From an uncultured Clostridia bacterium (lineage in GTDB: Bacteria; Bacillota; Clostridia; TANB77; CAG-508), in NCBI GenBank assembly GCA_934168365.1, contig CAKPNJ010000003.1, forward strand, positions 31,055 through 95,054: a stretch of DNA of 64,000 bases, read 5' to 3'. This document shows, one piece after another, positions 12,048 to 64,000 of this stretch. The position numbers and the translations under genes are program-made. The notes under the pieces were generated by a model. The model had not been told where the DNA came from. It saw only the letters and a program-made list of their open reading frames with translations, and searched no databases. Each line of letters opens with the position of its first letter. Positions within the stretch are counted from its first letter, which is position 1.

Positions 12048-12800
12048 TTAAATATACCCAAAAGTGCGAAGTTTGTTTATTGAATTGATTAATTCATCTT
12101 TTCTTTTTACTTCAATAAGTACATCTAAATCATGCTTATTACAGAAATCTAATTCTTCCTTAATATCAAGGATACCTGTAAATAGTTCTTGATGATCTTT
12201 GAAACCATTATAATCGTGTAAATGAACATGTTTAATTTTATCTTTATATTTTAGAAATTCTTCTTTAGCGATATTACCATATCTAATATTATGTCCTAAA
12301 TCTAATGTGAAAAATAAATTATCATAATTTGCAATAATTTCAATTGCTTTTAAAGTATAAGATTCTATTTTTACATTCTCAAATAAGATAGTAGCATTAT
12401 ATTTACTTGCTATTTTAGAAAGTGCATTACATGAATTTTTATATGCATCCAAATATTCACTCAAGTATTCCTCGTAAATAAATATTTTTTTATCTGGTAA
12501 CGAAAAATGAATACCGGGGTCAAGATGAATATTATATTTGAGAATATGGTGCTTTGTACCAAAAGATATAATTCTTTCTATTTCATTTAAATAAAACTTG
12601 CGTAAAGAATCATTTAATTCACCAACATCAATTTTTTCTGATAGATGAATAGTAAAAGCATTGCTATCTAATAGAGTGGTATCTAAGCTTTCTAAGAAGC
12701 AGTATGGTATATCTAGATTTAATTCAATAAAATCCAAATTAAGCTCTTGAGCTAGTTTCACATTTTCTTCTAAAGAATGAAGTTCGACTAATATAGGCAT
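12048..12800 (-). CDS. Sugar phosphate isomerase/epimerase (xylose-isomerase-like TIM barrel, AP endonuclease 2 fold).
   Basis: TLDLGH and HVHLHD metal-ligand motifs. GGAGG RBS upstream of the start. Confidence 0.55.
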   Translation of the reverse strand: MPILVELHSLEENVKLAQELNLDFIELNLDIPYCFLESLDTTLLDSNAFTIHLSEKIDVGELNDSLRKFYLNEIERIISFGTKHHILKYNIHLDPGIHFSLPDKKIFIYEEYLSEYLDAYKNSCNALSKIASKYNATILFENVKIESYTLKAIEIIANYDNLFFTLDLGHNIRYGNIAKEEFLKYKDKIKHVHLHDYNGFKDHQELFTGILDIKEELDFCNKHDLDVLIEVKRKDELINSINKLRTFGYI

Positions 12801-27706: not shown

Positions 27707-27770
27707 TGCTACTTGAAACTTCTAGGTTTTATTTATATAATATATGGTATTGAGTAAGGAGGAAAAGAAA

Positions 27771-28772
27771 TTGACTTTTATTGAAAATATTAAAGAGAAA
27801 GCAAAAAAAGATATTAAAACAATAATACTTCCAGAAGCAGAAGATATTAGAGTTTTAATAGCAACTGAGCAAATAATAAAAGAAGGATTTGCAAAAGTTA
27901 TTTTAATTGGCGATACGACAAAAATTAAGGAGGATGCAAGCAAAAACAATTTAAATATATCAGATGCAGAAATTATAAATCCTAAAACTTCCGATAATTT
28001 TGAAGAATATGCAAATAGTTTATATGAATTAAGAAAAGCCAAAGGAATGACCTTAGAACAAGCCAAAGAATTACTATTAGAACCAATTTATTTTGGAATA
28101 ATGATGGTAAAAAACAATGATGCTGACGGATTAGTGTCAGGTGCTTGTCATTCAACAGCTAACACTCTAAGACCAGCACTTCAAATATTAAAAACAGCAC
28201 CAAGTACAAAACTTGTTTCTGCATTTTTTGTAATGGTAGTTCCAAACTGTGAATATGGAGAAAATGGCGTATTTGTTTTTGGAGATAGTGGCTTAGTAGA
28301 AAATCCATCTGCTGAAGAATTAGCAGAAATAGCAAAATCATCAAGTAAAAGTTTTGAAACTTTAGTTGGAAAACCATCAAAAGTAGCAATGCTTTCATAT
28401 TCTACTTATGGAAGTGCACATTCTGAACTAACAGAAAAGGTAGTAAATGCAACTAAACTGTTAAAAGAACAAATGCCTAATTTAGTTTGTGATGGAGAAT
28501 TACAATTAGATGCTGCCATAATCCCTGAGGTTGCGTCTTCAAAAGCACCTAATAGTCCAGTAGCAGGTAAAGCAAATACTTTAATATTCCCTGACTTAAA
28601 TGCTGGAAATATAGGATATAAATTAGTTCAAAGACTAGCAAAAGCTGAAGCTTATGGACCACTTTGCCAAGGTGTTGCAAAACCTGTAAATGACTTATCA
28701 AGAGGTTGTAGTAGTAAAGATATTGTTGGAGTTGTAGCAATTACTTGCGTTCAAGCTCAAAATGGTATATAA
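27771..28772 (+). CDS. pta: Phosphate acetyltransferase (phosphotransacetylase).
   Basis: LTFIENIKEKAKKDIKTIILPEAED matches Pta N-termini. The TTG at 27771 has an AAGGAGG RBS 8 nt upstream. The ORF track's ATG at 27744 lacks an RBS. Confidence 0.8.
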   Translation: MTFIENIKEKAKKDIKTIILPEAEDIRVLIATEQIIKEGFAKVILIGDTTKIKEDASKNNLNISDAEIINPKTSDNFEEYANSLYELRKAKGMTLEQAKELLLEPIYFGIMMVKNNDADGLVSGACHSTANTLRPALQILKTAPSTKLVSAFFVMVVPNCEYGENGVFVFGDSGLVENPSAEELAEIAKSSSKSFETLVGKPSKVAMLSYSTYGSAHSELTEKVVNATKLLKEQMPNLVCDGELQLDAAIIPEVASSKAPNSPVAGKANTLIFPDLNAGNIGYKLVQRLAKAEAYGPLCQGVAKPVNDLSRGCSSKDIVGVVAITCVQAQNGI

Positions 28773-28835: not shown

Positions 28836-30029
28836 ATGAAAGTTTTAGTAGTAAACTGTGGAAGTTCGTCAATTAAATATCAATTGATAAACATGGAAAA
28901 TGAAAGCGTTATGGCAAAAGGATATTTGGAGAAAATTGGATTACCAGATTCATTTTTAACACATACTGTAAATGGTGAAAAACGTAAAATTGAAGAGCCT
29001 ATAAACAATCATGAAGAAGGAATAAAATTAGTGTTAGCTCAATTAACACACCCAGAATATGGTGTAATTAGTAGTTTAGATGAAATTGGAGCTGTTGGAC
29101 ACAGAGTTGTTCACGGTGGAGAAAAATTCAGTTCTTCTGTTTTAATAGATGATGCTGTTATGGAAGCAATGAAAGAATGTATTCCACTAGCACCTTTACA
29201 TAATCCAGCTGGAATTACAGGAATTGAAGCTTGTAAAAAAGTACTACCAAATGTTCCAATGGTTGGAGTATTTGATACAGCCTTCCATCAAACATTACCA
29301 GAAAAAGCATATATCTATGCTATTCCTTATGAATATTATGAGAAATATGGAATAAGAAAATATGGATTCCACGGAACATCTCATAGATTTGTATCAAAAA
29401 GAGTAGCTGAAGTTATGAATAAACCAATTGAAGATTTAAAAATTATAACATGTCACTTGGGCCAAGGTGCAAGTTTATGCGCTGTTGACGGTGGAAAATC
29501 AGTTGATACTTCAATGGGATTAACACCTTTAGCAGGAATTCCTATGGGAACTAGATCAGGAGATATTGATCCATCAATAGTAACATTTTTAATGAACAAA
29601 GAAAATTTAACACCAGACCAAATGGATAATATACTAAACAAAAAATCAGGTAAATTAGGAGTTTCAGGAGTTAGCTTTGATGATAGAGATATCGAAAAAG
29701 CTATAGCAGAAGGAAACGAAAGAGCAAAACTTGCAATAGATACATTTGTATATCAAGTAATTGGATATATTGGTAGATTTGCTGCTCAAATGAATGGTGT
29801 AGACGCTATTACATTTGCTGGTGGTGTTGGAGAAAACGGAATTGATGTAAGAAAACAAATATGTGAATCACTTTCTTTCTTAGGCGTGAAAATCGACGAA
29901 GAGAAAAACAATTGCAGAGGTAAAGAAGTTGAAATTTCAACACCAGACTCTAATGTAAAAGTATTTGTTATTCCAACAGACGAAGAATTAACAATAGCAA
30001 GAGATACTATGGAAATAGTAAATAAATAA
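28836..30029 (+). CDS. ackA: Acetate kinase (copy 1).
   Basis: [17 protein letters not shown] and the full acetate/propionate kinase signature. Confidence 0.9.
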
Positions 30030-30040
30030 TTAAAAGAGGA

Positions 30041-31240
30041 TTGAAAATGAAAGTATTAGTATTAAATTGTGGAAGCTCATCAATTAAATATCAATTGATT
30101 GATATGGAAAATGAAAATTTGATGGCAAAAGGATATTTAGAGAAAATTGGATTGCCAGATTCTTTCTTAACACATACTGTAAATGGTGAAAAGCATAAAA
30201 TTGAACAAGTTATAGAAAACCATGAAGAAGGAATTAAATTAGTATTATCTCAATTAACACATCCAGAATATGGCGTAATTAAAAGCTTTGATGAAATCGG
30301 AGCTATTGGCCATAGATTAGCTCACGGAGGAGATAAAATTAGTGAGCCAACTTTAATAGACGAAAATGTTATAAATGTATTAAAGGAATTTACACCTTTA
30401 GCACCTTTACATAACCCTGCTGAAATAGTAGGAGTAGAAGCTTGTAAAAAAGTATTACCAGATGTTCCAATGGTTGGAGTATTTGATACAGCTTTTAATC
30501 AAACTATTCCTGAAAAAGCATATATGTATGCAATCCCATATGAATATTATGAAAAATATGGAATAAGAAAATATGGTTTCCACGGAACATCATATAAATT
30601 TGTTTCAAAAAGAGTAGCTGAAATTATGGATAAACCTTTAGAAGATTTAAAAATTGTTTCATGTCACCTTGGTCAAGGAGCAAGTGTATGTGCAATAAAT
30701 GGAGGAAAAGCAGTAGATAACTCATTAGGATTTACTTCTTTAGCAGGTCTTCCTATGGGAACAAGATGTGGAGATATTGATCCATCAATAGTAACTTTCT
30801 TAATGAAAAAAGAAAATTTAACTACAGAACAAATGGATAAAATATTAAATAAACAATCTGGTAAATTAGGAATTTCAGGGGTTAGCTTTGATGACAGAGA
30901 TATTGAAGTTGCTGCAGAAGAAGGAAATGCAAGAGCAAAACTTGCAATAGATGTTTTTGTATATCAAGTAGTTGGATATATTGGTAGATTTGCAGCTCAA
31001 ATGAATGGTGTAGATGTTATTACATTTGCTGGTGGAATTGGAGAAAATGCAATAGATGTAAGAAAACAAATATGTGAATCACTTTCTTTCTTAGGAGTAA
31101 AAGTTGATGAAGATAGAAATAATTGCAGAGGAAAAGAAATTGAAATTTCAACATCTGATTCTAAAGTAAAAGTATTTGTAGTACCAACAAATGAGGAGCT
31201 AATGATAGCAAGAGACACTATGGAAGTAGTTAGTAAATAA
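30041..31240 (+). CDS. Acetate/propionate kinase paralog (copy 2), by eye roughly 75-80% identical to copy 1.
   Basis: [17 protein letters not shown]. Tandem duplicate of the upstream gene. Confidence 0.85.
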   Translation: MKMKVLVLNCGSSSIKYQLIDMENENLMAKGYLEKIGLPDSFLTHTVNGEKHKIEQVIENHEEGIKLVLSQLTHPEYGVIKSFDEIGAIGHRLAHGGDKISEPTLIDENVINVLKEFTPLAPLHNPAEIVGVEACKKVLPDVPMVGVFDTAFNQTIPEKAYMYAIPYEYYEKYGIRKYGFHGTSYKFVSKRVAEIMDKPLEDLKIVSCHLGQGASVCAINGGKAVDNSLGFTSLAGLPMGTRCGDIDPSIVTFLMKKENLTTEQMDKILNKQSGKLGISGVSFDDRDIEVAAEEGNARAKLAIDVFVYQVVGYIGRFAAQMNGVDVITFAGGIGENAIDVRKQICESLSFLGVKVDEDRNNCRGKEIEISTSDSKVKVFVVPTNEELMIARDTMEVVSK

Positions 31241-31330: not shown

Positions 31331-32305
31331 ATGATAGACTTAAAAGAAAATCCAACATTTTTAAATTCATTTTTGGAATATCTAACAGGTATTTTAAATA
31401 AATCTGTTAACACAGTAAAAGAATATAACTATGATTTAGCTCATTTTCTAAAGTTCATATCTCATCATTTTGGCTTATCTTCTGAAGAAAACATAAAAGA
31501 GATAGATATTCATGATATGAGTATAGAAACGGTTAAGCAGATTAAATTAGAAGATATACATGCATTTTTATATTATTTAACAGAAACATACCACAGTAAA
31601 GCTGCCACACGTGCAAGAAAAGCCGCAAGTATTAGAATGTTTTTTAGTTATTTAACTCAAAAGGCTCACTTATTAGAAGTGAATCCTGCGCAAGGACTTG
31701 AAACACCTAAGCTAGACAAAAGGCTTCCTAAATATCTAACTTTAGAACAAAGTAAGGAACTACTAGAAGTTACAAAGGCAGAATCCGGAGATTTTAAAGA
31801 AAGAGATTATGCGATAATTACTTTATTCTTAAATTGTGGAATGCGTTTATCAGAGTTAGTGAATATAAATATAAAAGATATAAATTTTTATGATAATAAA
31901 TTAAATGTAGTGGGCAAGGGAAATAAAGAAAGAACTATTTACTTAAACAAAGCTTGTATTGACGCCATAAACTCATACTTGGCTGTAAGACCACATGATG
32001 GCGTAAAATTTGATTCTAGAGATGCTCTATTTTTAAGCAAAAGAAAAGAACGAATCAGTAACAGAATGGTCCAAGAAATAGTAAAAAGAGAATTGGCAAA
32101 GGCAGGACTAGATATAAATAAATACTCTGTTCACAAATTAAGACACACTGCCGCAACCTTAATGTATCAGTATGGTGATGTAGATATTAGAGCTTTGCAA
32201 GTGTTATTAGGACATGAAAGTATATCTACTACTGAAATATATACACATGTAGAGAATAAACAAGTAAAAAATGCTGTTGAAAGCAACCCTTTAGCAAATG
32301 AATGA
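31331..32305 (+). CDS. Tyrosine site-specific recombinase, XerC/XerD-like.
   Basis: C-terminal catalytic motif HKLRHTAATLMYQYGDVDIRALQVLLGHESISTTEIYTHV with the R...H-R-Y residues. Confidence 0.8.
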   Translation: MIDLKENPTFLNSFLEYLTGILNKSVNTVKEYNYDLAHFLKFISHHFGLSSEENIKEIDIHDMSIETVKQIKLEDIHAFLYYLTETYHSKAATRARKAASIRMFFSYLTQKAHLLEVNPAQGLETPKLDKRLPKYLTLEQSKELLEVTKAESGDFKERDYAIITLFLNCGMRLSELVNINIKDINFYDNKLNVVGKGNKERTIYLNKACIDAINSYLAVRPHDGVKFDSRDALFLSKRKERISNRMVQEIVKRELAKAGLDINKYSVHKLRHTAATLMYQYGDVDIRALQVLLGHESISTTEIYTHVENKQVKNAVESNPLANE

Positions 32306-33652: not shown

Positions 33653-33665
33653 AGCACAAACTCAA

Positions 33666-33701
33666 CAAGGCACCAAATATTGGTGTCTTGTTATTTTTTA
33701 T
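33666..33701 (+). terminator. Rho-independent terminator.
   Basis: caaggcaccaa atat tggtgtcttg plus T-run. Confidence 0.55.
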
Positions 33702-34615
33702 CTTCTATAGAAATATTTCCAGTTTTGTTACTGGGAAAAAATGGGAGGGTAGGAGAGAGGAACAGTCAAAATCATAAATATTGAAATATAAAATTTGTAT
33801 AAACTTTTGGTTAAATTAAAATTTTAAAATTTTGTGCAAAGTTTTAAATTTATAAAAATTTTAAATTTACGAGCAAAAATTCTAAACATTTATAATTGAT
33901 AAATTTTAATAATAAAATTTTTGTTTATAATTTATAAATAACTAAAATTTATTATACTAACTATATAAAATATTTTAATTATTTGACCTGTTAAAATTTT
34001 TTAATATTAAAGATAATAAATTTCGTCTGATAATCATATAGAATTTTATATGATTGATGCAAAATATCGATTTTTATTGATTTTTATAAAGTCACCAAAA
34101 AGTGGTAAAAAAACGACTCTCTAAAATCGATTTTAAGGCGTTTTTATTTTTTAGACATATAACTTGTTATCTAAAAAATAGCTTAGTATTGAAAATATAA
34201 ACAGCAATCAAATGCTTATAAAAAAATTATATAATTTAGATAAAAATATATAATAATAAAATATTTGAAATAAAATTTATATGAATAAAAATTTAAAAAG
34301 GCTTAGAATTGATTTTAGAAGGTCAAAAATAAGTGAGTAATAGGATAAGATTATAAATATAATAATTAGATTGAATATAAAGTAATAAACTATAGGCATA
34401 TATACTATATAAGCCAGATAATAGCTAAAAGTAGTAGGAGAGGAGCTATATAAGGTATATAGGCAAATTTACCTCCACCCAATTGCGCAAAACTTTGATT
34501 TTGCGCAATTGGTGTAATATAATTTAAAGTAGTATTTCTTAACACTACCCTCTTTTCAATCATTATTCAATTTATTAAATCCTTATTTGTATTTTTGTTT
34601 AGGTTTTTCTAATAA

Positions 34616-34642
34616 AGAGTAGCTTTAAAACTACTCTTTAAT
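34616..34642 (-). terminator. Hairpin immediately downstream of the PP2C-like gene.
   Basis: aaagagtag ctttaaaa ctactcttt. Confidence 0.4.
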
Positions 34643-34658
34643 TGTATGTTATATTAAA

Positions 34659-44504: not shown

Positions 44505-45170
44505 TCATTTTTTTAATTTGTCCTTAGCAATTTCTCCTAAATTATGAGTTTTTGAGTCTTTCTTTCTAATAAATAATTTTTCTGCCTTCATTACATCTAT
44601 TGGCTTTATAGTATCTTTTGGATCATCTCTCATTATTTTCACAAAATTTTCAGTAGCCTTTAACAAACGTTTTGAAGTATCAAATTGTTTTGTTGTTCTA
44701 AGTACATCAACCATTTGTAGAATTTCTTTGCAATATCTAGGTAAAGTATAATTTAAAAATAGGTAATTAGCATTTGACTTAAACAAATTTATTTCTTCCT
44801 CTTTATCTGTTAGCCAAGATGCTGTAATATACAGATTGTATGCTTTAGCATACTGTCCATTATTGCAATATTGAGTTGCAACAAGCAAAACTTTTCTTAG
44901 TTCATCACTATAATTGTTAATTATTGCTTGTATTTCGTTATCTTTATTCCAAAGTTCAACATTGTTTGCATATCTCATTTCAATTGAATTTTCTATATCA
45001 TAATTAGCGTAATGGCAAGAAGGGCATTCCAAAATACCACTATTTATTCCAGAGATACTACCAACTGGTTTTAAATCAAAGTCCGAATACCCCATACTGA
45101 AATTAGATAACCCGTACTCTATATGTATTTTCTTGTCCACATACAGCACATTTATATGTTTTTTCCACAA
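44505..45170 (-). CDS. Hypothetical protein with an N-terminal CPSC zinc-ribbon-like motif.
   Basis: ORF only. Confidence 0.4.
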   Translation of the reverse strand: MWKKHINVLYVDKKIHIEYGLSNFSMGYSDFDLKPVGSISGINSGILECPSCHYANYDIENSIEMRYANNVELWNKDNEIQAIINNYSDELRKVLLVATQYCNNGQYAKAYNLYITASWLTDKEEEINLFKSNANYLFLNYTLPRYCKEILQMVDVLRTTKQFDTSKRLLKATENFVKIMRDDPKDTIKPIDVMKAEKLFIRKKDSKTHNLGEIAKDKLKK

Positions 45171-45264
45171 TTTTCATTCAAATATCCCCCTTATAATATT
45201 TTTTATTTATAAAACAAAATAGGAACCTCACATAATTTTATTAGCGAAGGCTCCTTAGTTTTTC

Positions 45265-47997
45265 TTATTTTCCACAACAGTTTTTATACTTCTTACCACT
45301 TCCACATGAACAAGGGTCATTTCTGCCAACTTTTGGTTCGTTATTTACAACTGGAGTGTTTGATGCTGATGTTCTTGGTGTATTATTATCTGGTTGGTTT
45401 GCCAAGCCTTCACCTGTAATTTTTACTGAAGATGTTCTTTGAACATTACCTTCTCTTTTTCTTGCATTCATCAAGAATTTTACAACATCAGTTTGAATAT
45501 CTAGGTTCATTTGTTCAAACATATCAAATCCTTCAATTCTGTATTGAACAACTGGGTCTTTTTGACCATAAGCTTGAAGACCAATTCCATCTTTTAGTTC
45601 ATCCATTGCATCTATGTGATCCATCCATCTGTCATCAACTATTTTAAGCATAACAACTCTTTCAAGTTCTCTCATCTCTGGTTCGCCAATTTCTTTTTCT
45701 TTTTCATTATACAAGCTATGAATTTTATCTTTTAGTTCTTCTGCTACATCATGTGCTTTAATTCTATCTTTATGAAGCGCATTTAAGTCATCCACTCCAT
45801 ATATTTCTTTAATCTCTTGTTCAAATCCTTCGATATTTAAATTGTCTGTATCTGCTAAATACTCGTTAGATGTAGCGTCTGCCAAAGAATCCATCATTTT
45901 TGTAATATGTTCTTTTAAGTTCTCTCCATCAAGTACTTTTCTTCTTTCATCATATATAATAGTTCTTTGTACATTCATAACATCATCATAAGAAAGTACA
46001 TTTTTACGAATACTAAAGTTTTTGCCTTCTACTTTCTTTTGAGCATTTTCTACTGCATTAGAAATGATTTTTGACTCAATTGGCATATCTTCGTCAGCTC
46101 CTAAAGTATCATAAACTCTAGTAATCATATCTCCACCAAATATTTTCATTAGGTCATCATCCAAGCTGATATAAAATCTTGATTCTCCTGGATCACCTTG
46201 ACGTCCACTACGTCCACGAAGCTGATTATCAATTCTTCTTGATTCATGGCGTTCTGTACCTATTATTTTTAATCCACCTGCTGATATTACTTTTTCTTTT
46301 TCGTCTTTAATTTCATTATCATATTTAGCTTTAAGTTCTTTAAATTTATTTCTAGAAGCTAAGACTTCTTGATCATCAGTCTCGTTAAATGCTGTTGCTT
46401 GTTCAATTTGATCTTCTGAATATCCAAATTTTCTCATTTCCTGTTTTGCTAAATATTCACTATTACCTCCAAGCATAATATCAGTACCACGACCAGCCAT
46501 GTTTGTAGCAATTGTAACTGTTCCAAACTTACCAGCTTGTGCAATAATTTCAGCTTCTTTTTCATGGAATTTAGCATTTAATACTTGATGTTTGATTCCT
46601 TCTTTTTTTAGCATACTGCTTAATTTTTCAGATTTTTCAATAGAAACTGTACCAACTAGCACTGGTTGACCTTTTGCAAAGCTTTCTTTAATATCAGAAA
46701 TAACTGCTCTGTATTTTGCATTTTCATTTTTGTAGATAATGTCATGATGGTCATCACGTACCATTGGTTTATTTGTAGGTATTTCAATAACATCTAATTT
46801 GTATATCTCTTGGAATTCTGCTTCTTCTGTCATTGCTGTACCAGTCATACCTGAAAGTTTATCATACATTCTAAAATAGTTTTGGAATGTAATTGTTGCT
46901 AAAGTTTTTGATTCGTCAGCTATTTTAACATGCTCTTTTGCTTCAATAGCTTGGTGAAGACCATTATTGTATCTTCTTCCATACATAATTCTTCCTGTAA
47001 ATTCATCTACAATAAGAACTTCGCCGTCTTTTACAATGTAGTCAATATCTTTTTTCATAATTCCATGTGCACGAAGTGCTTGGTTAATATTATGCACTAA
47101 TTCTGAGTTTTCAATATCATTAAAATTCTCTAAATTAAATTCTCTTTCAGCTTTTTGAATACCTTTTTGTGTTAATGAAGCTGATTTTGCTTTTAAGTCA
47201 ACTATGTAATCATAGTTTTCATTATCTTCAGCTTGTTCTTCATCTTTTATGTCTTCTTCAACTATAACTTTTGGAGTTAATCTAGCTACAAAGCTATCAG
47301 CCTTTTTATATAAATCTGAAGACTGTGCTCCACGTCCTGATATAATTAAAGGTGTACGAGCTTCATCAATTAAAATACTATCAATCTCGTCGACAATTGC
47401 ATAGTTTAATTCTCTTTGTACTAATTGGTCTTTGTATATAACCATGTTGTCTCTTAAGTAATCAAATCCAAATTCATTATTAGTTCCATATGTTACGTCA
47501 GCAGCATATGCAGCCTTCTTAGCACTTGGATCCATTCCACTAATAACTAATCCAACTGTTAATCCTAAAAATTTATATACTTTGCCCATCCATTCACTAT
47601 CTCTTTTGGCTAAGTAATCGTTAACAGTAACAACATGAACTCCTTTTCCAGTTAAAGCATTTAAATATACTGGTAGTGTTGCAACAAGTGTCTTTCCTTC
47701 ACCAGTCTTCATCTCTGCAATTCTTCCTTGGTGTAATATAATACCACCAATAAGTTGCACATCAAAATGGCGCATTCCTAAAACTCTTTTTGAAGCTTCT
47801 CTTACAACTGCAAATGCTTCTGGAAGAATATCGTCAAGTGTTTCTCCTTGTGTTAGTCTATCTTTAAATTCTGCTGTTTTATTTCTTAGTTCTTCATCTG
47901 ATAATTTTTGAATTTCAGACTCTAAACTATTTATTTTCTCTACTATTGGTCTTACTCTTTTTACTTCCTTCTCACTGTATGTTTTAAATAATCCCAT
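45265..47997 (-). CDS. secA: Preprotein translocase ATPase SecA.
   Basis: DEAD-like motor motifs and the C-terminal zinc-binding tail [14 protein letters not shown]. Confidence 0.97.
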
Positions 47998-60074: not shown

Positions 60075-61136
60075 CTAGGATTCATAAACTAGAATAGGAA
60101 TAGATGTAGAAATATTTTCGTAGAGAATTTTTGCGGCTTCATGTGGCATATTCACACAACCATGTGAGCCATCTGTTTTATAAATTTCTCCACCGAAAAT
60201 TCCATTTCGCCAAGAGGCATCGTGAAAACCTATACCTCCATTAAACGGCATCCAATAGTCCACAGGAGAAGCATATTTGCTTCCATCACTGTTGCTACCT
60301 CTTAGAACAGCATTCCGTTCTTTGTAGTAAAGATAGTAGACACCAGTTGGAGTACTGCAACCATCTGCAACATTTCCAGTTACACATGGAGTATCAAGAA
60401 TACATTCACCATCAACATACATTAAGACTCTTTGTTCAGTTATATCCAACTCAATTCTGGTATTTAGATTTGGAACCTGAACTCCTTTGATAATATCATT
60501 CAATGCCTCTAACCGAGGCTCAAGCATTTTGGTTACTATCTCCGGCTCTACAATTGTTGGTTTTGATAATTTAATGCCATATTCTCCTTGTTCAAGTTTT
60601 TCCATGAAAAGTTTATAGTTTTCTTCAAAGTCAATTACTTTTCCATATTGTTCTTGAGCAATTTGAAATTTTTGAGTTTCATCATTCCATTCAATGAATG
60701 CATTCTGAGATCCACTACTTCCCTGCATCTCTTGCAAATTCCTAAGATATCGTTCTATTGCTTTTTCATCAAAAGATACTATTCCAGAATAATTATTAAT
60801 TTTGGTCATATCTCCTAATTTTTGATTTTTAAGGATTTCATGCAATAAATTTTCGTTTACATTTACTCCAAGTTTGTCTAATGTCACTTCATATGTGTGG
60901 TTACTATCAAACCATATTACTGAAGTTCTTTTTCCAAGTGTCTCCTCAATGTTGTTTTTTGCCTTTTCTACCGTTAGGCACGAACAGTTTACACCTTGAA
61001 TATATGTCCCAATTGTAAAATGCGAATGATAGAACATACTTGCAAAAACAATGAAAGCAACTACTATCCCAAGTAATACTAGTCCAAAATGTTTTTGCTT
61101 TTTATTCCGTTTTTTTTGCATACTCTTCCCCTCCAT
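60075..61136 (-). CDS. L,D-transpeptidase (YkuD/ErfK family) with an N-terminal membrane anchor.
   Basis: Catalytic motif HGCVNMP. GGAGG RBS. Confidence 0.75.
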   Translation of the reverse strand: MEGKSMQKKRNKKQKHFGLVLLGIVVAFIVFASMFYHSHFTIGTYIQGVNCSCLTVEKAKNNIEETLGKRTSVIWFDSNHTYEVTLDKLGVNVNENLLHEILKNQKLGDMTKINNYSGIVSFDEKAIERYLRNLQEMQGSSGSQNAFIEWNDETQKFQIAQEQYGKVIDFEENYKLFMEKLEQGEYGIKLSKPTIVEPEIVTKMLEPRLEALNDIIKGVQVPNLNTRIELDITEQRVLMYVDGECILDTPCVTGNVADGCSTPTGVYYLYYKERNAVLRGSNSDGSKYASPVDYWMPFNGGIGFHDASWRNGIFGGEIYKTDGSHGCVNMPHEAAKILYENISTSIPILVYES

Positions 61137-61344
61137 AATAGAATCCTCCTTGTGTGTTACTTAAATTTTTTTGTAACATCAAAAAATTTGGAATATTCTA
61201 ATTATACCACTTTCATGTTGATATGTCAAAATTTCCCAAAATCTTTTTTACTTTATTATTCAATTTGTTACAAATATATTACACAAATATTACAAAAAGG
61301 CAATGTGTATTACATAATTATTACATTAGGTTTACAAAAAATCT

Positions 61345-61416
61345 TATCCACAGCATTGTGAATAATGTGGATAACTTTGTGAATAACTATAAATAGGCAC
61401 ATATTTCTGTGGATAA
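61345..61416. promoter_or_regulatory. Cluster of DnaA boxes: three perfect TTATCCACA/TGTGGATAA sites plus two TGTGAATAA variants within ~75 bp.
   Basis: ttatccaca 61345-61353, tgtggataa 61366-61374 and 61408-61416, ttgtgaataa at about 61356 and 61377. Confidence 0.6.
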
Positions 61417-61529
61417 CTTTTATGTTTTATTGTTTACTATTTTATGGTAACAAGTTATTTATTATATATTGTCAAATAGTTTTTAAAACTTTTACATTAA
61501 ATTCCATTTGTATATTTTCTCATTATTTA

Positions 61530-61575
61530 ACATCAAAAAACTGCAGTTTCTAGATTAAAGAAAATGCAGTTTTTA
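61530..61575 (-). terminator. Terminator downstream of the DUF1294 gene.
   Basis: aaaactgcag ... tgcagttttt. Confidence 0.5.
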
Positions 61576-61583
61576 TCACTATT

Positions 61584-61868
61584 TTACGTACATAATAGTA
61601 TTATCAAAAGAATTTCACATATTAGAATTACAGGAAATCCTATTACAAATTTTGCTTTCTGAGTTTTATGTCTAAAAGTATACATTCCGACAATACCACC
61701 TATACCTCCTCCTAGTAAAACTAGTACCAGCAAAGTATTTTCAGGTATCCTCCACTTGCCTCTTTTAGCTTTCCATTTATCAAGCCACATTGCAAAAAAT
61801 GTAATCAAATTTATAGCAAGCAAATAAATAACTATATACTTAACATCAATTAACTCCTCTAATTTCAT
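61584..61868 (-). CDS. DUF1294-family small membrane protein.
   Basis: WLDKWKAKRGKWRIPENTLL...GGGIGGIVGMYTFRHKT fits the DUF1294 pattern. Confidence 0.6.
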   Translation of the reverse strand: MKLEELIDVKYIVIYLLAINLITFFAMWLDKWKAKRGKWRIPENTLLVLVLLGGGIGGIVGMYTFRHKTQKAKFVIGFPVILICEILLIILLCT

Positions 61869-61920
61869 TTTTTCTCCTCCTAGTAATTCAACTTAGTTAT
61901 TGGGCTTTGATATGCTCACA

Positions 61921-62088
61921 AAGTAAATATTATTATTTTAAAAGCGTGCGAATGCGAGCGGATGCGATGCCGAGCCTGACAAGTTAGAGATTCTTAAAAT
62001 ATTTTATAACGATAAAAAAGCGTTTAAAATATTTTTAGAATCTCTTATGCCAGTCAGATAGCTGGCAAAAATAATAATATTTACTTTG
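61921..62088. repeat. ~170-bp imperfect palindrome with a GC-rich core (gcgtgcgaatgcgagcggatgcgatgccgagcc), nested arms, and 20-bp terminal arms aaagtaaatattattatttt / aaaataataatatttacttt.
   Basis: Read directly. Lies between the polC stop and the DUF1294 gene. Confidence 0.5.
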
Positions 62089-62093
62089 AGTAA

Positions 62094-64000
62094 TTAGCCG
62101 AAAAGACTAAGTTGATTGCTCTGACTCATCCCCTTCAAGCATCCAACTTTTTGTAACATTTCAATAACAGATGTACCAATTTTTGAACGAATCTTCATAT
62201 CATCTATAGACATAAATTTTCCATCTTTCTTCGCAGTATCTATTCCTTCTGCAGCTACAGTTCCTAATCCAGGAATGCTGTTTAATGGAGGTCTTATCTC
62301 TGTATCTGATTCCATTATAAATTTTGTTGCATGACTCTTATACAAATCAATTGGCAAGAATGTAATTCCTCTTTCATACATTTCTAATACTAACTCTAAA
62401 ATTGCATACATATTCTTATCTTTAGTTGAAGCACTATTTCCTTGTAAGTCAATTTCTTTCATTTTATTTTTTACTTTTTCTACACCATAACACATAATAT
62501 CACTATCAAATTCGTCTGCACGAATTGTATAAAATGCAGTGTAATATGCTGCTGGTTTATGTACTTTAAACCATGCAATACGGAAGGCATTTGTAACATA
62601 AGCTGCAGCATGTGCTTTAGGGAACATGTACTTAATTTTTTGGCAAGAACCAATATACCATTCAGGTATGTTGTATTCTCTCATCATTGCTTCATGTTCT
62701 TTCCATTTTTCTGGGTCTTTTGAAGCTTTTCCTTTACGTACAAACTCCATTATTTTGAATGCTGGCTTTGGTGGCAATCCTTTTTTTATTAAATAAAGCA
62801 TAATATCATCTCTACAACCTATTGCCTCACTTAATGTAACAATTCCTTGATTAACAAGTTCTTGTCCATTGTTTAACCATACATCAGTACCATGTGAAAG
62901 TCCTGATATACTTATCAATTCATTAAATGTTGTTGGTTTTGTATCAACTAGCATTCCTCTTACGAACTTTGTTCCAAACTCTGGTATTCCAAATGTTCCC
63001 ACTTCTGAATGTATTTGTTCAGGAGTCACTCCTAATACTTTTGTTGAACTAAATATCGACATAGTTTCTTTATCGTCCAAAGGTACTTTAGTTGGGTCAA
63101 TTCCAGTTAAATCAAATAACATACGAATCATTGTAGGATCATCATGACCTAGTATATCTAGTTTTAATAAGTTTTGGTCAATTGAGTGATAATCAAAGTG
63201 TGTTGTTATAATGTCTGAATTAGGATCATCTGCCGGATGTTGTACTGGCGTGAATTCATATATTTCTCTGCCTTTTGGTACAACTATAATTCCACCTGGA
63301 TGTTGGCCAGTTGTTCTCTTGATTCCTGTACATCCTTGTGAAAGTCTTACTACTTCTGCATTACTAATAGGTATGCCTTTTTCTTCATAATATTTTTTTA
63401 CATATCCATAAGCAGTTTTGTCAGCTACTGTACCAACTGTACCAGCTTTAAATGTTGTTCCTTTTCCAAATATTACTTCTGTATATCTATGGGCTTTTGC
63501 TTGATATTCTCCTGAGAAGTTTAAGTCAATATCAGGCTCTTTATCTCCATCAAATCCTAAGAAAGTTTCAAATGGAATATCCATTCCATCCTTTGCTAAT
63601 TTTTCTCCACAGTTTGGACAAGTCTTATCAGGTAAGTCAAATCCATTTTTTACTCCATAATCTGTAAAATCTGAATATTTACACTTAGGGCATCTATAAT
63701 GTGGTGGAAGTGAATTTACTTCTGTAATACCTGTCATGTTTGCTACAAATGATGAACCAACAGAACCTCTTGAACCTACTATATATCCATCTTCATTAGA
63801 TTTCCATACTAATTTTTGTGCAATAATGTACATAACTGAGAATCCATTTGTAATAATAGAATGTAATTCTTTATCTAATCTTGCTTGTACTATTTCTGGT
63901 AATGGATCTCCATATAGTTCATGGGCTTTACTATATGCAATATTTTTTATTGTTTCTTCACATCCATCAATGTGTGGTGGACACTTTTCAGGTGAAATTG
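62094..64000 (-). CDS. polC: DNA polymerase III PolC-type alpha subunit, C-terminal portion. The N-terminus is beyond the window.
   Basis: [37 protein letters not shown] (zinc finger plus HhH region) and the conserved C-terminal tail. The reading frame is open to the window end. Confidence 0.85.

Follow-up and report, generated by a model that had tools for sequence, protein, structure and literature searches.

A non-coding module of ~200 bp (61260–61460) in the genome of an uncultured gut Clostridia bacterium is, on the best-supported reading of its sequence, a new and well-conserved secondary DnaA-box cluster with a composite architecture. We regard it as probable that this cluster, which lies outside the origin, is coupled to the adjacent promoter and is a docking site for several DnaA molecules, as predicted from its boxes. 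Coordinates refer to the window, i.e., the whole 64-kb stretch of DNA that was analyzed, which has a GC content of 28%. All genes around the cluster run on the − strand, and the module is described in that direction.

Five DnaA Boxes Are Packed into 73 bp

Three perfect and two one-mismatch DnaA boxes are packed into 73 bp (61344–61416), in agreement with the sequence-only reading, which had placed three perfect boxes at 61345, 61366, and 61408 (accurate to within 1 base) and two one-mismatch variants, all within ~75 bp. An upstream perfect box (TTATCCACA, 61408–61416, −) lies 21 bp ahead of a head-to-tail three-box core (61357–61386, −) of the form TTATTCACA-AAG-TTATCCACA-TTATTCACA. Within the core, a one-mismatch box (TTATTCACA, 61378–61386, −), a perfect box (TTATCCACA, 61366–61374, −), and a further one-mismatch box (TTATTCACA, 61357–61365, −) follow one another at distances of 3 bp and 0 bp, and an inverted perfect box (TTATCCACA, 61344–61352, +) is found 4 bp past the core. 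The core agrees with the idealized pattern at 34 of the 36 specified positions.

The perfect box TTATCCACA occurs three times in the whole 64-kb window, against 0.75 expected. The window was simulated 300 times with a first-order Markov model; the densest 80 bp then contained three boxes at most, a number reached in 7 of the 300 runs, compared with the five observed; three perfect boxes per 80 bp, as observed here, were found in 0/300 simulations. Because this box density is unmatched in the simulations, the cluster is real and far beyond chance. Elsewhere in the window, three one-mismatch boxes (TTGTCCACA, TTTTCCACA, and TTTTCCACA, all +) lie within 145 bp (45133–45276), largely in coding sequence at the 3′ end of secA and the start of the following gene; this group may be due to chance.

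The cluster was previously described as adjoining the 3′ end of polC, a description partly corrected here: the DUF1294 gene and a 170-bp inverted-repeat element intervene. The 3′ part of polC (62094–63833, −; Pfam DNA_pol3_alpha, finger, and HHH_6) ends with a stop codon at 62094; the listed open reading frame begins at an internal ATG, and the gene apparently extends past the window end. The 170-bp element (61919–62088), located between polC and the DUF1294 gene, is bounded by perfect 21-nt terminal inverted repeats and contains another inverted repeat of 21 nt. The window has one copy of it; L001, a relative with 99% identity, has none, and its polC and DUF1294 genes are 16 bp apart. The element looks like a MITE-like insertion. 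The DUF1294 gene itself (61584–61868, −; Pfam PF06961, E-value 2.5e-27) is the conserved upstream neighbor of the module and is followed by a Rho-independent terminator hairpin (61541–61574, −; −14.8 kcal/mol, z-score −4.2) and a U-run. The terminator stem is kept in L001, with changes on both sides.

Between this terminator and the boxes lies an AT-rich spacer (61417–61540; GC 16.1%), which holds the conserved motif GTTACCATAAAATAGTAAACAATAA; at 61440–61459, the mean identity of relatives to the window is 0.85. The ~120 bp of very AT-rich DNA noted earlier is thus present, and its GC content is among the lowest 1.7% of 124-bp windows. However, intergenic DNA here generally has a GC content of 16%–37% (mostly 18%–27%), so the stretch is only mildly unusual. 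An Rfam scan of the whole window, of the locus at a permissive threshold, and of 17 related loci revealed no RNA family that fits the module; at the locus, there were only chance-level matches to microRNA models, mostly on the inverted-repeat element (61952–62060).

The Three-Box Core Is Conserved beside polC-DUF1294 in Related Genomes

Using the PolC C terminus as a query, we collected 80 related loci from species-representative genomes. The closest PolC relatives are uncultured gut Clostridia MAGs (L001, 99% identity; a Candidatus Merdicola genome, 88%). The three-box core is found in 24 of the 80 polC-anchored loci, all in genomes with 78%–99% PolC identity; it has the polC orientation in 22 of these 24 and usually lies 80–300 bp past the DUF1294 stop codon. 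The related loci are phylogenetically non-independent, and such counts overstate the number of independent observations. The start-to-start box spacing, (+)12(+)9(+)13(−), recurs exactly among relatives. Checking for conservation in relatives, as had been proposed, thus revealed 24 related genomes with a fixed architecture, which, together with the non-origin setting, supports the suggested likeness to the secondary clusters of Bacillus.

Conservation is concentrated in the module. In five close relatives, the ~200-bp block (61260–61460) is 0.6–0.9 identical to the window, compared with 0.2–0.5 for the intergenic flanks, and the invariant columns of the block in the closest genomes are the boxes and the TGTAA cores of the repeats described below. 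The upstream box (61408–61416) is invariant across the six-genome alignment A1, and more distant relatives have a box 30–37 bp upstream of the core, in either orientation. The inverted box is present in the window and in L006, L062, L042, L008, L012, L025, and L037, and is lost in L001, L005, L007, and L019. Near polC, the module is missing from about half of the close relatives, one of them the closed genome from which L009 comes; this counts against our main reading and indicates that the module is dispensable or mobile. In L001, a same-species relative without ldt, the module (12234–12330) no longer has the inverted box, its third box has become GTTTCCACA, and its second TGTAAH set carries mutations. 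Such partial decay is in keeping with selection having been relaxed once the downstream gene was lost.

The Cluster Lies in a Co-oriented Block Distant from Origin Markers

A dense group of consensus boxes containing a three-box core, with AT-rich DNA on one side and a location conserved within the clade, could in principle act as the origin of the chromosome, as half of a bipartite origin, or as a second origin that is latent. Indeed, the origin unwinding module combines tandem boxes with at least three DnaA-trios within ~16 bp and a stretch of AT-rich DNA beyond them; in the published algorithm for finding origins, tandem boxes may be at most 3 bp apart (PMC8287927, PMC6669920). The core has tandem boxes with gaps within this limit, and its three boxes in a row resemble those of Clostridioides difficile oriC2, where they stand ahead of the trios and are followed by CTACTACTATTACTACTA (PMC7561715). 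The firmicute oriC2/incC basal unwinding system likewise has same-orientation tandem boxes with gaps of 0–3 bp and an extra distal box able to face either way (PMC8287927, PMC6669920).

The resemblance ends past the third box. The DnaA-trio is 3′-GAT-5′ with the middle A, and we searched for trio runs beginning within 8 nt past the third box. In the window, the core is followed by a run of 2; 129 of 139 loci have a run of ≤2, which does not exceed the level of shuffled sequence, whereas the C. difficile control reaches 6. A TTT TTT GTA stretch at offset 15 is technically a 3-triplet run, without GAT character. Thus, unlike oriC2/incC, the module has neither a trio run nor a GC-rich spacer, and an inverted box follows instead.

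The chromosomal setting also differs from that of oriC2/incC, in that the module is neither beside dnaA/dnaN nor at a skew switch. The sequence-only reading saw no dnaA, dnaN, or rpmH nearby, and Pfam scans of the open reading frames revealed no dnaA, dnaN, or other origin marker in the window. A tblastn search with Bacillus subtilis DnaA and DnaN, both recognized by Pfam as full-length proteins, likewise yielded no match, whether in the window or in the sequence flanking any of 244 loci (2.7 Mb altogether). Genes and GC skew follow the + strand from 1 to ~34 kb and the − strand from ~34 to 64 kb. Since gene strand and skew flip there, replication forks converge near 34 kb, a terminus-type switch, and the cluster lies 27 kb from it within a uniformly co-oriented block. 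In 20 relatives, too, genes are co-oriented over 10 kb to either side of the locus, and GC skew, taken in the polC orientation, is positive on both sides; neither the window nor these relatives have at the cluster the skew and strand switch expected of oriC.

The switch falls within a 1-kb AT-rich non-coding gap (33653–34658; GC 21%), with a XerC/D-type recombinase gene (31331–32305) ~1.3 kb upstream of the gap. Searches at the switch with the B. subtilis and Escherichia coli dif sequences and a XerD-arm pattern revealed no convincing dif site, only a weak palindrome near 34150; with no recognizable dif, the term terminus is used here on the basis of strand and skew alone. Together with the absence of the module from about half of the close relatives, these features make any origin function highly improbable and bring it close to refuted. 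They bear out the earlier view that the cluster is probably not oriC proper and speak against the accompanying suggestion of a bipartite half-origin, for which a skew switch and a trio array are missing and which would sit 27 kb from a terminus-like convergence.

A TGTAAH Repeat Array Adjoins the Boxes

Adjoining the boxes are six TGTAAH hexamers in a 3+3 layout with 11-bp phasing (61267–61336), a feature absent from the sequence-only reading. The first triple repeat, TGTAAA-N5-TGTAAT-N5-TGTAAT (61309–61336, −), and the second, TGTAAT-N5-TGTAAT-N5-TGTAAC (61267–61294, −), are both candidate sites for an OmpR-family regulator of the WalR/PhoP type. The pattern TGTWAH-N5-TGTWAH has six exact matches in the window, against 1.7 expected per 64 kb, and four of the six overlap one another within 61267–61336. 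In low-GC loci, the density of such dimers is 2.03 per kb over the 370 bp that follow the core (+30 to +400) and 0.043 per kb elsewhere, a 47-fold enrichment; of 52 low-GC loci, 17 have them in this zone. Alignment A1 shows no change at the TGTAA positions, but the spacers differ between genomes.

Read on the opposite strand, as (T/A/G)TTACA, the repeats also suit an 11-bp phased PhoP box. Because the hexamers suit both WalR and PhoP boxes, an OmpR-family regulator of the WalR/PhoP type is the safe claim, and such a response regulator probably binds the array. The PhoP site is TT[ATC]ACA with 11-bp phasing. TGTWAH-N5-TGTWAH is the B. subtilis WalR consensus, with only 29 intergenic matches across the whole C. 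difficile genome (PMC9210968). The array resembles WalR sites in its exact consensus, overlapping dimers, and 11-bp hexamer phasing (PMC10746227, PMC9210968), but unlike the single WalR dimer, it has six hexamers arranged 3+3 and also precedes non-envelope genes in relatives. Furthermore, WalR binds the dnaA promoter of Staphylococcus aureus, tying wall homeostasis to initiation (PMC10746227); similarly, the array here is located beside DnaA boxes, with a cell-wall gene downstream in this genome.

No OmpR-type regulator was seen within the window, a point against our main reading; the single response regulator there (1009–1998) matches the receiver domain only. We also considered the TGTAA repeats as −35/−10 elements, as DnaA-trios, or as dif arms and rejected these assignments, given the direct repeats, the 11-bp phasing, the wrong consensus, and the lack of a palindrome.

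The Core-Promoter Distance Is Conserved and the Downstream Gene Varies

Past the array lies a predicted σA promoter (61201–61229, −) with TTGACA, a 17-nt spacer, TATAAT, and a TG extension, matching the consensus at 12/12 positions. In the window, it would drive a YkuD-family L,D-transpeptidase gene, ldt (60075–61136, −; Pfam PF03734, E-value 8e-22; ATG at 61136). The −35 element is 157 bp past the core start. A strong promoter with its −35 element in the 100–159 bp bins past the core start is found in 17 of 52 low-GC loci, regardless of the following gene, and TTGAC occurs at +130–139 from the core in 45 of 104 metagenome loci. Because this core-promoter distance is conserved, transcription control is likely to be part of the function.

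The genes downstream of the module differ among loci and include Ldt, UvrA, GlyRS, rhodanese followed by LepA, TetR followed by an AMP-dependent ligase, and a RelA/SpoT-type synthetase. In other clades, we found no conserved small open reading frame or peptide past the module promoter except in near-identical sequences. Since the downstream gene varies between loci, the module is not ldt's own: the element is bound to the 3′ flank of polC-DUF1294 and to its own promoter. The earlier assignment of the cluster to the ldt promoter region is thus correct in so far as the boxes lie upstream of the ldt σA promoter, but it is the polC-DUF1294 flank to which the cluster is tied.

This variation weighs on the idea that the module is an ldt-specific operator at which DnaA and a WalR-like regulator control ldt. 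The cluster and the TGTAAH array do lie upstream of the ldt promoter, WalR regulons consist of cell-wall genes (PMC10746227, PMC9210968), and decay of the inverted box and of the second repeat set is seen in L001, which has no ldt and carries UvrA at that position. Yet ldt follows the module at just three loci (the window, L006, and L062), the module including its TGTAAH array precedes GlyRS in L003 and L004, and UvrA, rhodanese-LepA, and TetR genes follow it at others. Moreover, the position of the module is fixed relative to polC-DUF1294, and elsewhere the boxes largely stay with this flank rather than with orthologous ldt genes. We therefore consider an ldt-specific operator improbable.

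The opposite possibility is a pure DnaA-control site of the datA/DARS type, for which the promoter and the downstream gene would be incidental. The module stays put while the downstream gene changes, and in the window the boxes are situated 115–187 bp upstream of the perfect-consensus −35 element, far for simple repression or activation, with just one weak, two-mismatch box overlapping the promoter; the distance is likewise an argument against our main reading. In addition, three tandem boxes and one inverted box loosely recall the DARS core, in the layout that Fujimitsu in 2009 and Sugiyama in 2019 are said to have described. A DARS-like site has a three-box core with one box opposed as well as IHF and Fis sites, and it promotes ADP release.

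Several observations argue against such a pure control site. The core-promoter distance is conserved over many loci and clades, for which a pure sink has no need, and some relatives have an additional box right beside the −35 element (2–7 bp away; L004, L008). A terminus-proximal sink would be duplicated last, opposite to the effective origin-proximal datA and Bacillus clusters. B. subtilis DnaA exchanges nucleotide quickly, and given this fast exchange a DARS-like function is not obviously needed. On the other side, a B. subtilis cluster was partly functional when placed at the terminus (PMC3245932, PMC4447404). We hold a pure control site to be possible but distinctly less probable than a cluster that is coupled to its promoter. 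Within the latter, favored reading, DnaA docking or titration would matter too, because the downstream gene varies and the boxes are far from the promoter in the window.

The Core Occurs in Metagenomes and Viral Contigs

When metagenome contigs were scanned for exact matches to the core pattern, at least 120 loci emerged. Among the matches listed, ~25 low-GC loci show the polC-DUF1294 context, while the remaining loci have a GC content of 36%–63% and the core elsewhere; none of the metagenome core loci among the matches listed is beside dnaA or dnaN. The other contexts (L081–L200, e.g., L086, L081, and L115) include a position after a CwlO-like NlpC/P60 gene, convergent with a V-ATPase operon, and the core is also found upstream of hpf-secA, after fmt, and in further settings. 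In other clades, the gene strand and skew that surround the module are convergent at some loci, divergent at others, and in-line at still others, and thus do not point to a shared replication landmark.

The positional consensus drawn from 101 non-redundant copies reads AG-TTATnCACA-aAG-TTATCCACA-tTATCCACA. In an ungapped profile of these 101 copies, conservation across all clades is restricted to the core and the preceding AG, and flanking motifs are clade specific. Such clade motifs stand at fixed offsets from the core, with ACATAA or TTTACATAA at +50 and ATGTTTTG at +70; in higher-GC Clostridia, Spo0A-box-like TGTCGAA/TTCGACA is found at −90, −110, and +100 from the core. An ATTATC-N-GAYAAT palindrome is also seen further downstream of the core in higher-GC Clostridia.

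The bare three-box pattern is present in 44 IMG/VR viral contigs (L201–L244) as well, and a MITE-like insertion lies 500 bp from the cluster, as might be expected if the module were the remnant of a plasmid or phage replication region using host DnaA. However, the sequence on either side of the viral copies bears no relation to the chromosomal module, and a blastn search with 61140–61600 gave no match in 72,556 plasmids or 50,697 phages. The neighbors of the module are core housekeeping genes with conserved synteny, and there is no integrase or rep gene adjacent. We thus find a mobile remnant very hard to credit. The bare core looks like a general DnaA docking geometry, and judging from the shared pattern, phages may use the same geometry. 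About 24 of the 44 viral contigs are near-identical to one another (35%–41% GC); in others, the pattern is directly upstream of a gene start.

Discussion

Most work on secondary DnaA-box clusters has been done in Bacillus, E. coli, and Streptomyces. Those of B. subtilis reportedly recruit DnaD and DnaB without helicase loading, a finding that is attributed to Smits and colleagues in 2011. B. subtilis has six clusters outside oriC (sda, ywlC, ywcI-vpr, yydA, trmE-jag, and gcp-ydiF), which regulate adjacent promoters and jointly restrain initiation; one of them remained partly functional when moved to the terminus, and in different Bacillus species the clusters adjoin different genes (PMC3245932, PMC4447404). 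The module described here shares with them several boxes with at most one mismatch, an intergenic location outside oriC, an adjacent promoter, and neighboring genes that differ between species. The B. subtilis clusters are non-essential, and the module, too, is dispensable or mobile. It differs in having a fixed three-box core conserved over many genomes and a response-regulator repeat array beside it, and its DnaA binding is a prediction. It is also terminus-proximal, whereas the known Bacillus clusters are mostly origin-proximal, a position that is typical of the type, if not strictly defining, and the difference counts against our main reading.

The E. coli sites datA and DARS1/2 are comparable as non-origin groups of three to five DnaA boxes, and those act on the DnaA pool. 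The mixture of direct and inverted boxes loosely resembles that of the DARS core, and here the inverted box is lost in several relatives. Unlike the module, datA and DARS depend on IHF, Fis, and the ATP/ADP-DnaA cycle, and there is no sequence homology. We know of no ATP/ADP-DnaA cycle of the datA/DARS type shown in Firmicutes.

For a cluster coupled to its promoter, we propose the following mechanism. Several DnaA molecules would dock on the module and assemble there without opening the DNA. Assembly without unwinding is expected because the three-box core is origin-like but trio-less; at firmicute origins, a row of three boxes directly precedes the unwinding site, whereas here an inverted box takes the place of the DnaA-trios and the unwinding element. 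Bound DnaA would keep part of the cellular pool away from oriC. At the same time, through the σA promoter at a roughly fixed distance, downstream transcription, here that of ldt, would become dependent on DnaA status. In this sub-clade, a response regulator at the 3+3 repeats would feed an envelope or phosphate signal into the same promoter. The direction of any regulatory or titration effect, like the binding of DnaA and of the response regulator, belongs to what we infer from the arrangement of sites; for DnaA, the fact that the boxes are kept in 24 genomes lends the predicted binding indirect support.

A more far-reaching version, which we regard as rather unlikely, would see in the module a widespread clostridial DnaA-control locus, an unwinding-free decoy of the three-box platform of the origin, with the TGTAAH repeats as an envelope or phosphate input, Spo0A acting elsewhere via TGTCGAA, and the geometry borrowed by phages. 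If true, replication initiation would be coupled to cell-wall growth or sporulation.

For the favored reading, that of a secondary cluster coupled to its promoter, the pattern AG-TTATnCACA-nAG-TTATCCACA-nTnTCCACA provides a searchable definition of such clusters at non-origin loci of many uncultured gut Clostridia. In this lineage, WalR/PhoP-type candidate sites directly adjoin the DnaA-box core. The module could therefore serve as a test bed for DnaA assembly on an origin-like platform without DnaA-trios, for titration of DnaA versus promoters responsive to replication status, and for envelope signaling and replication control meeting on one DNA. It is also a caution for origin-prediction tools, in that dense consensus boxes with AT-rich flanks need not mean an origin.

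As a separate observation, the window contains two tandem acetate kinase genes (28836–31240) after a phosphotransacetylase gene (27744–28772).
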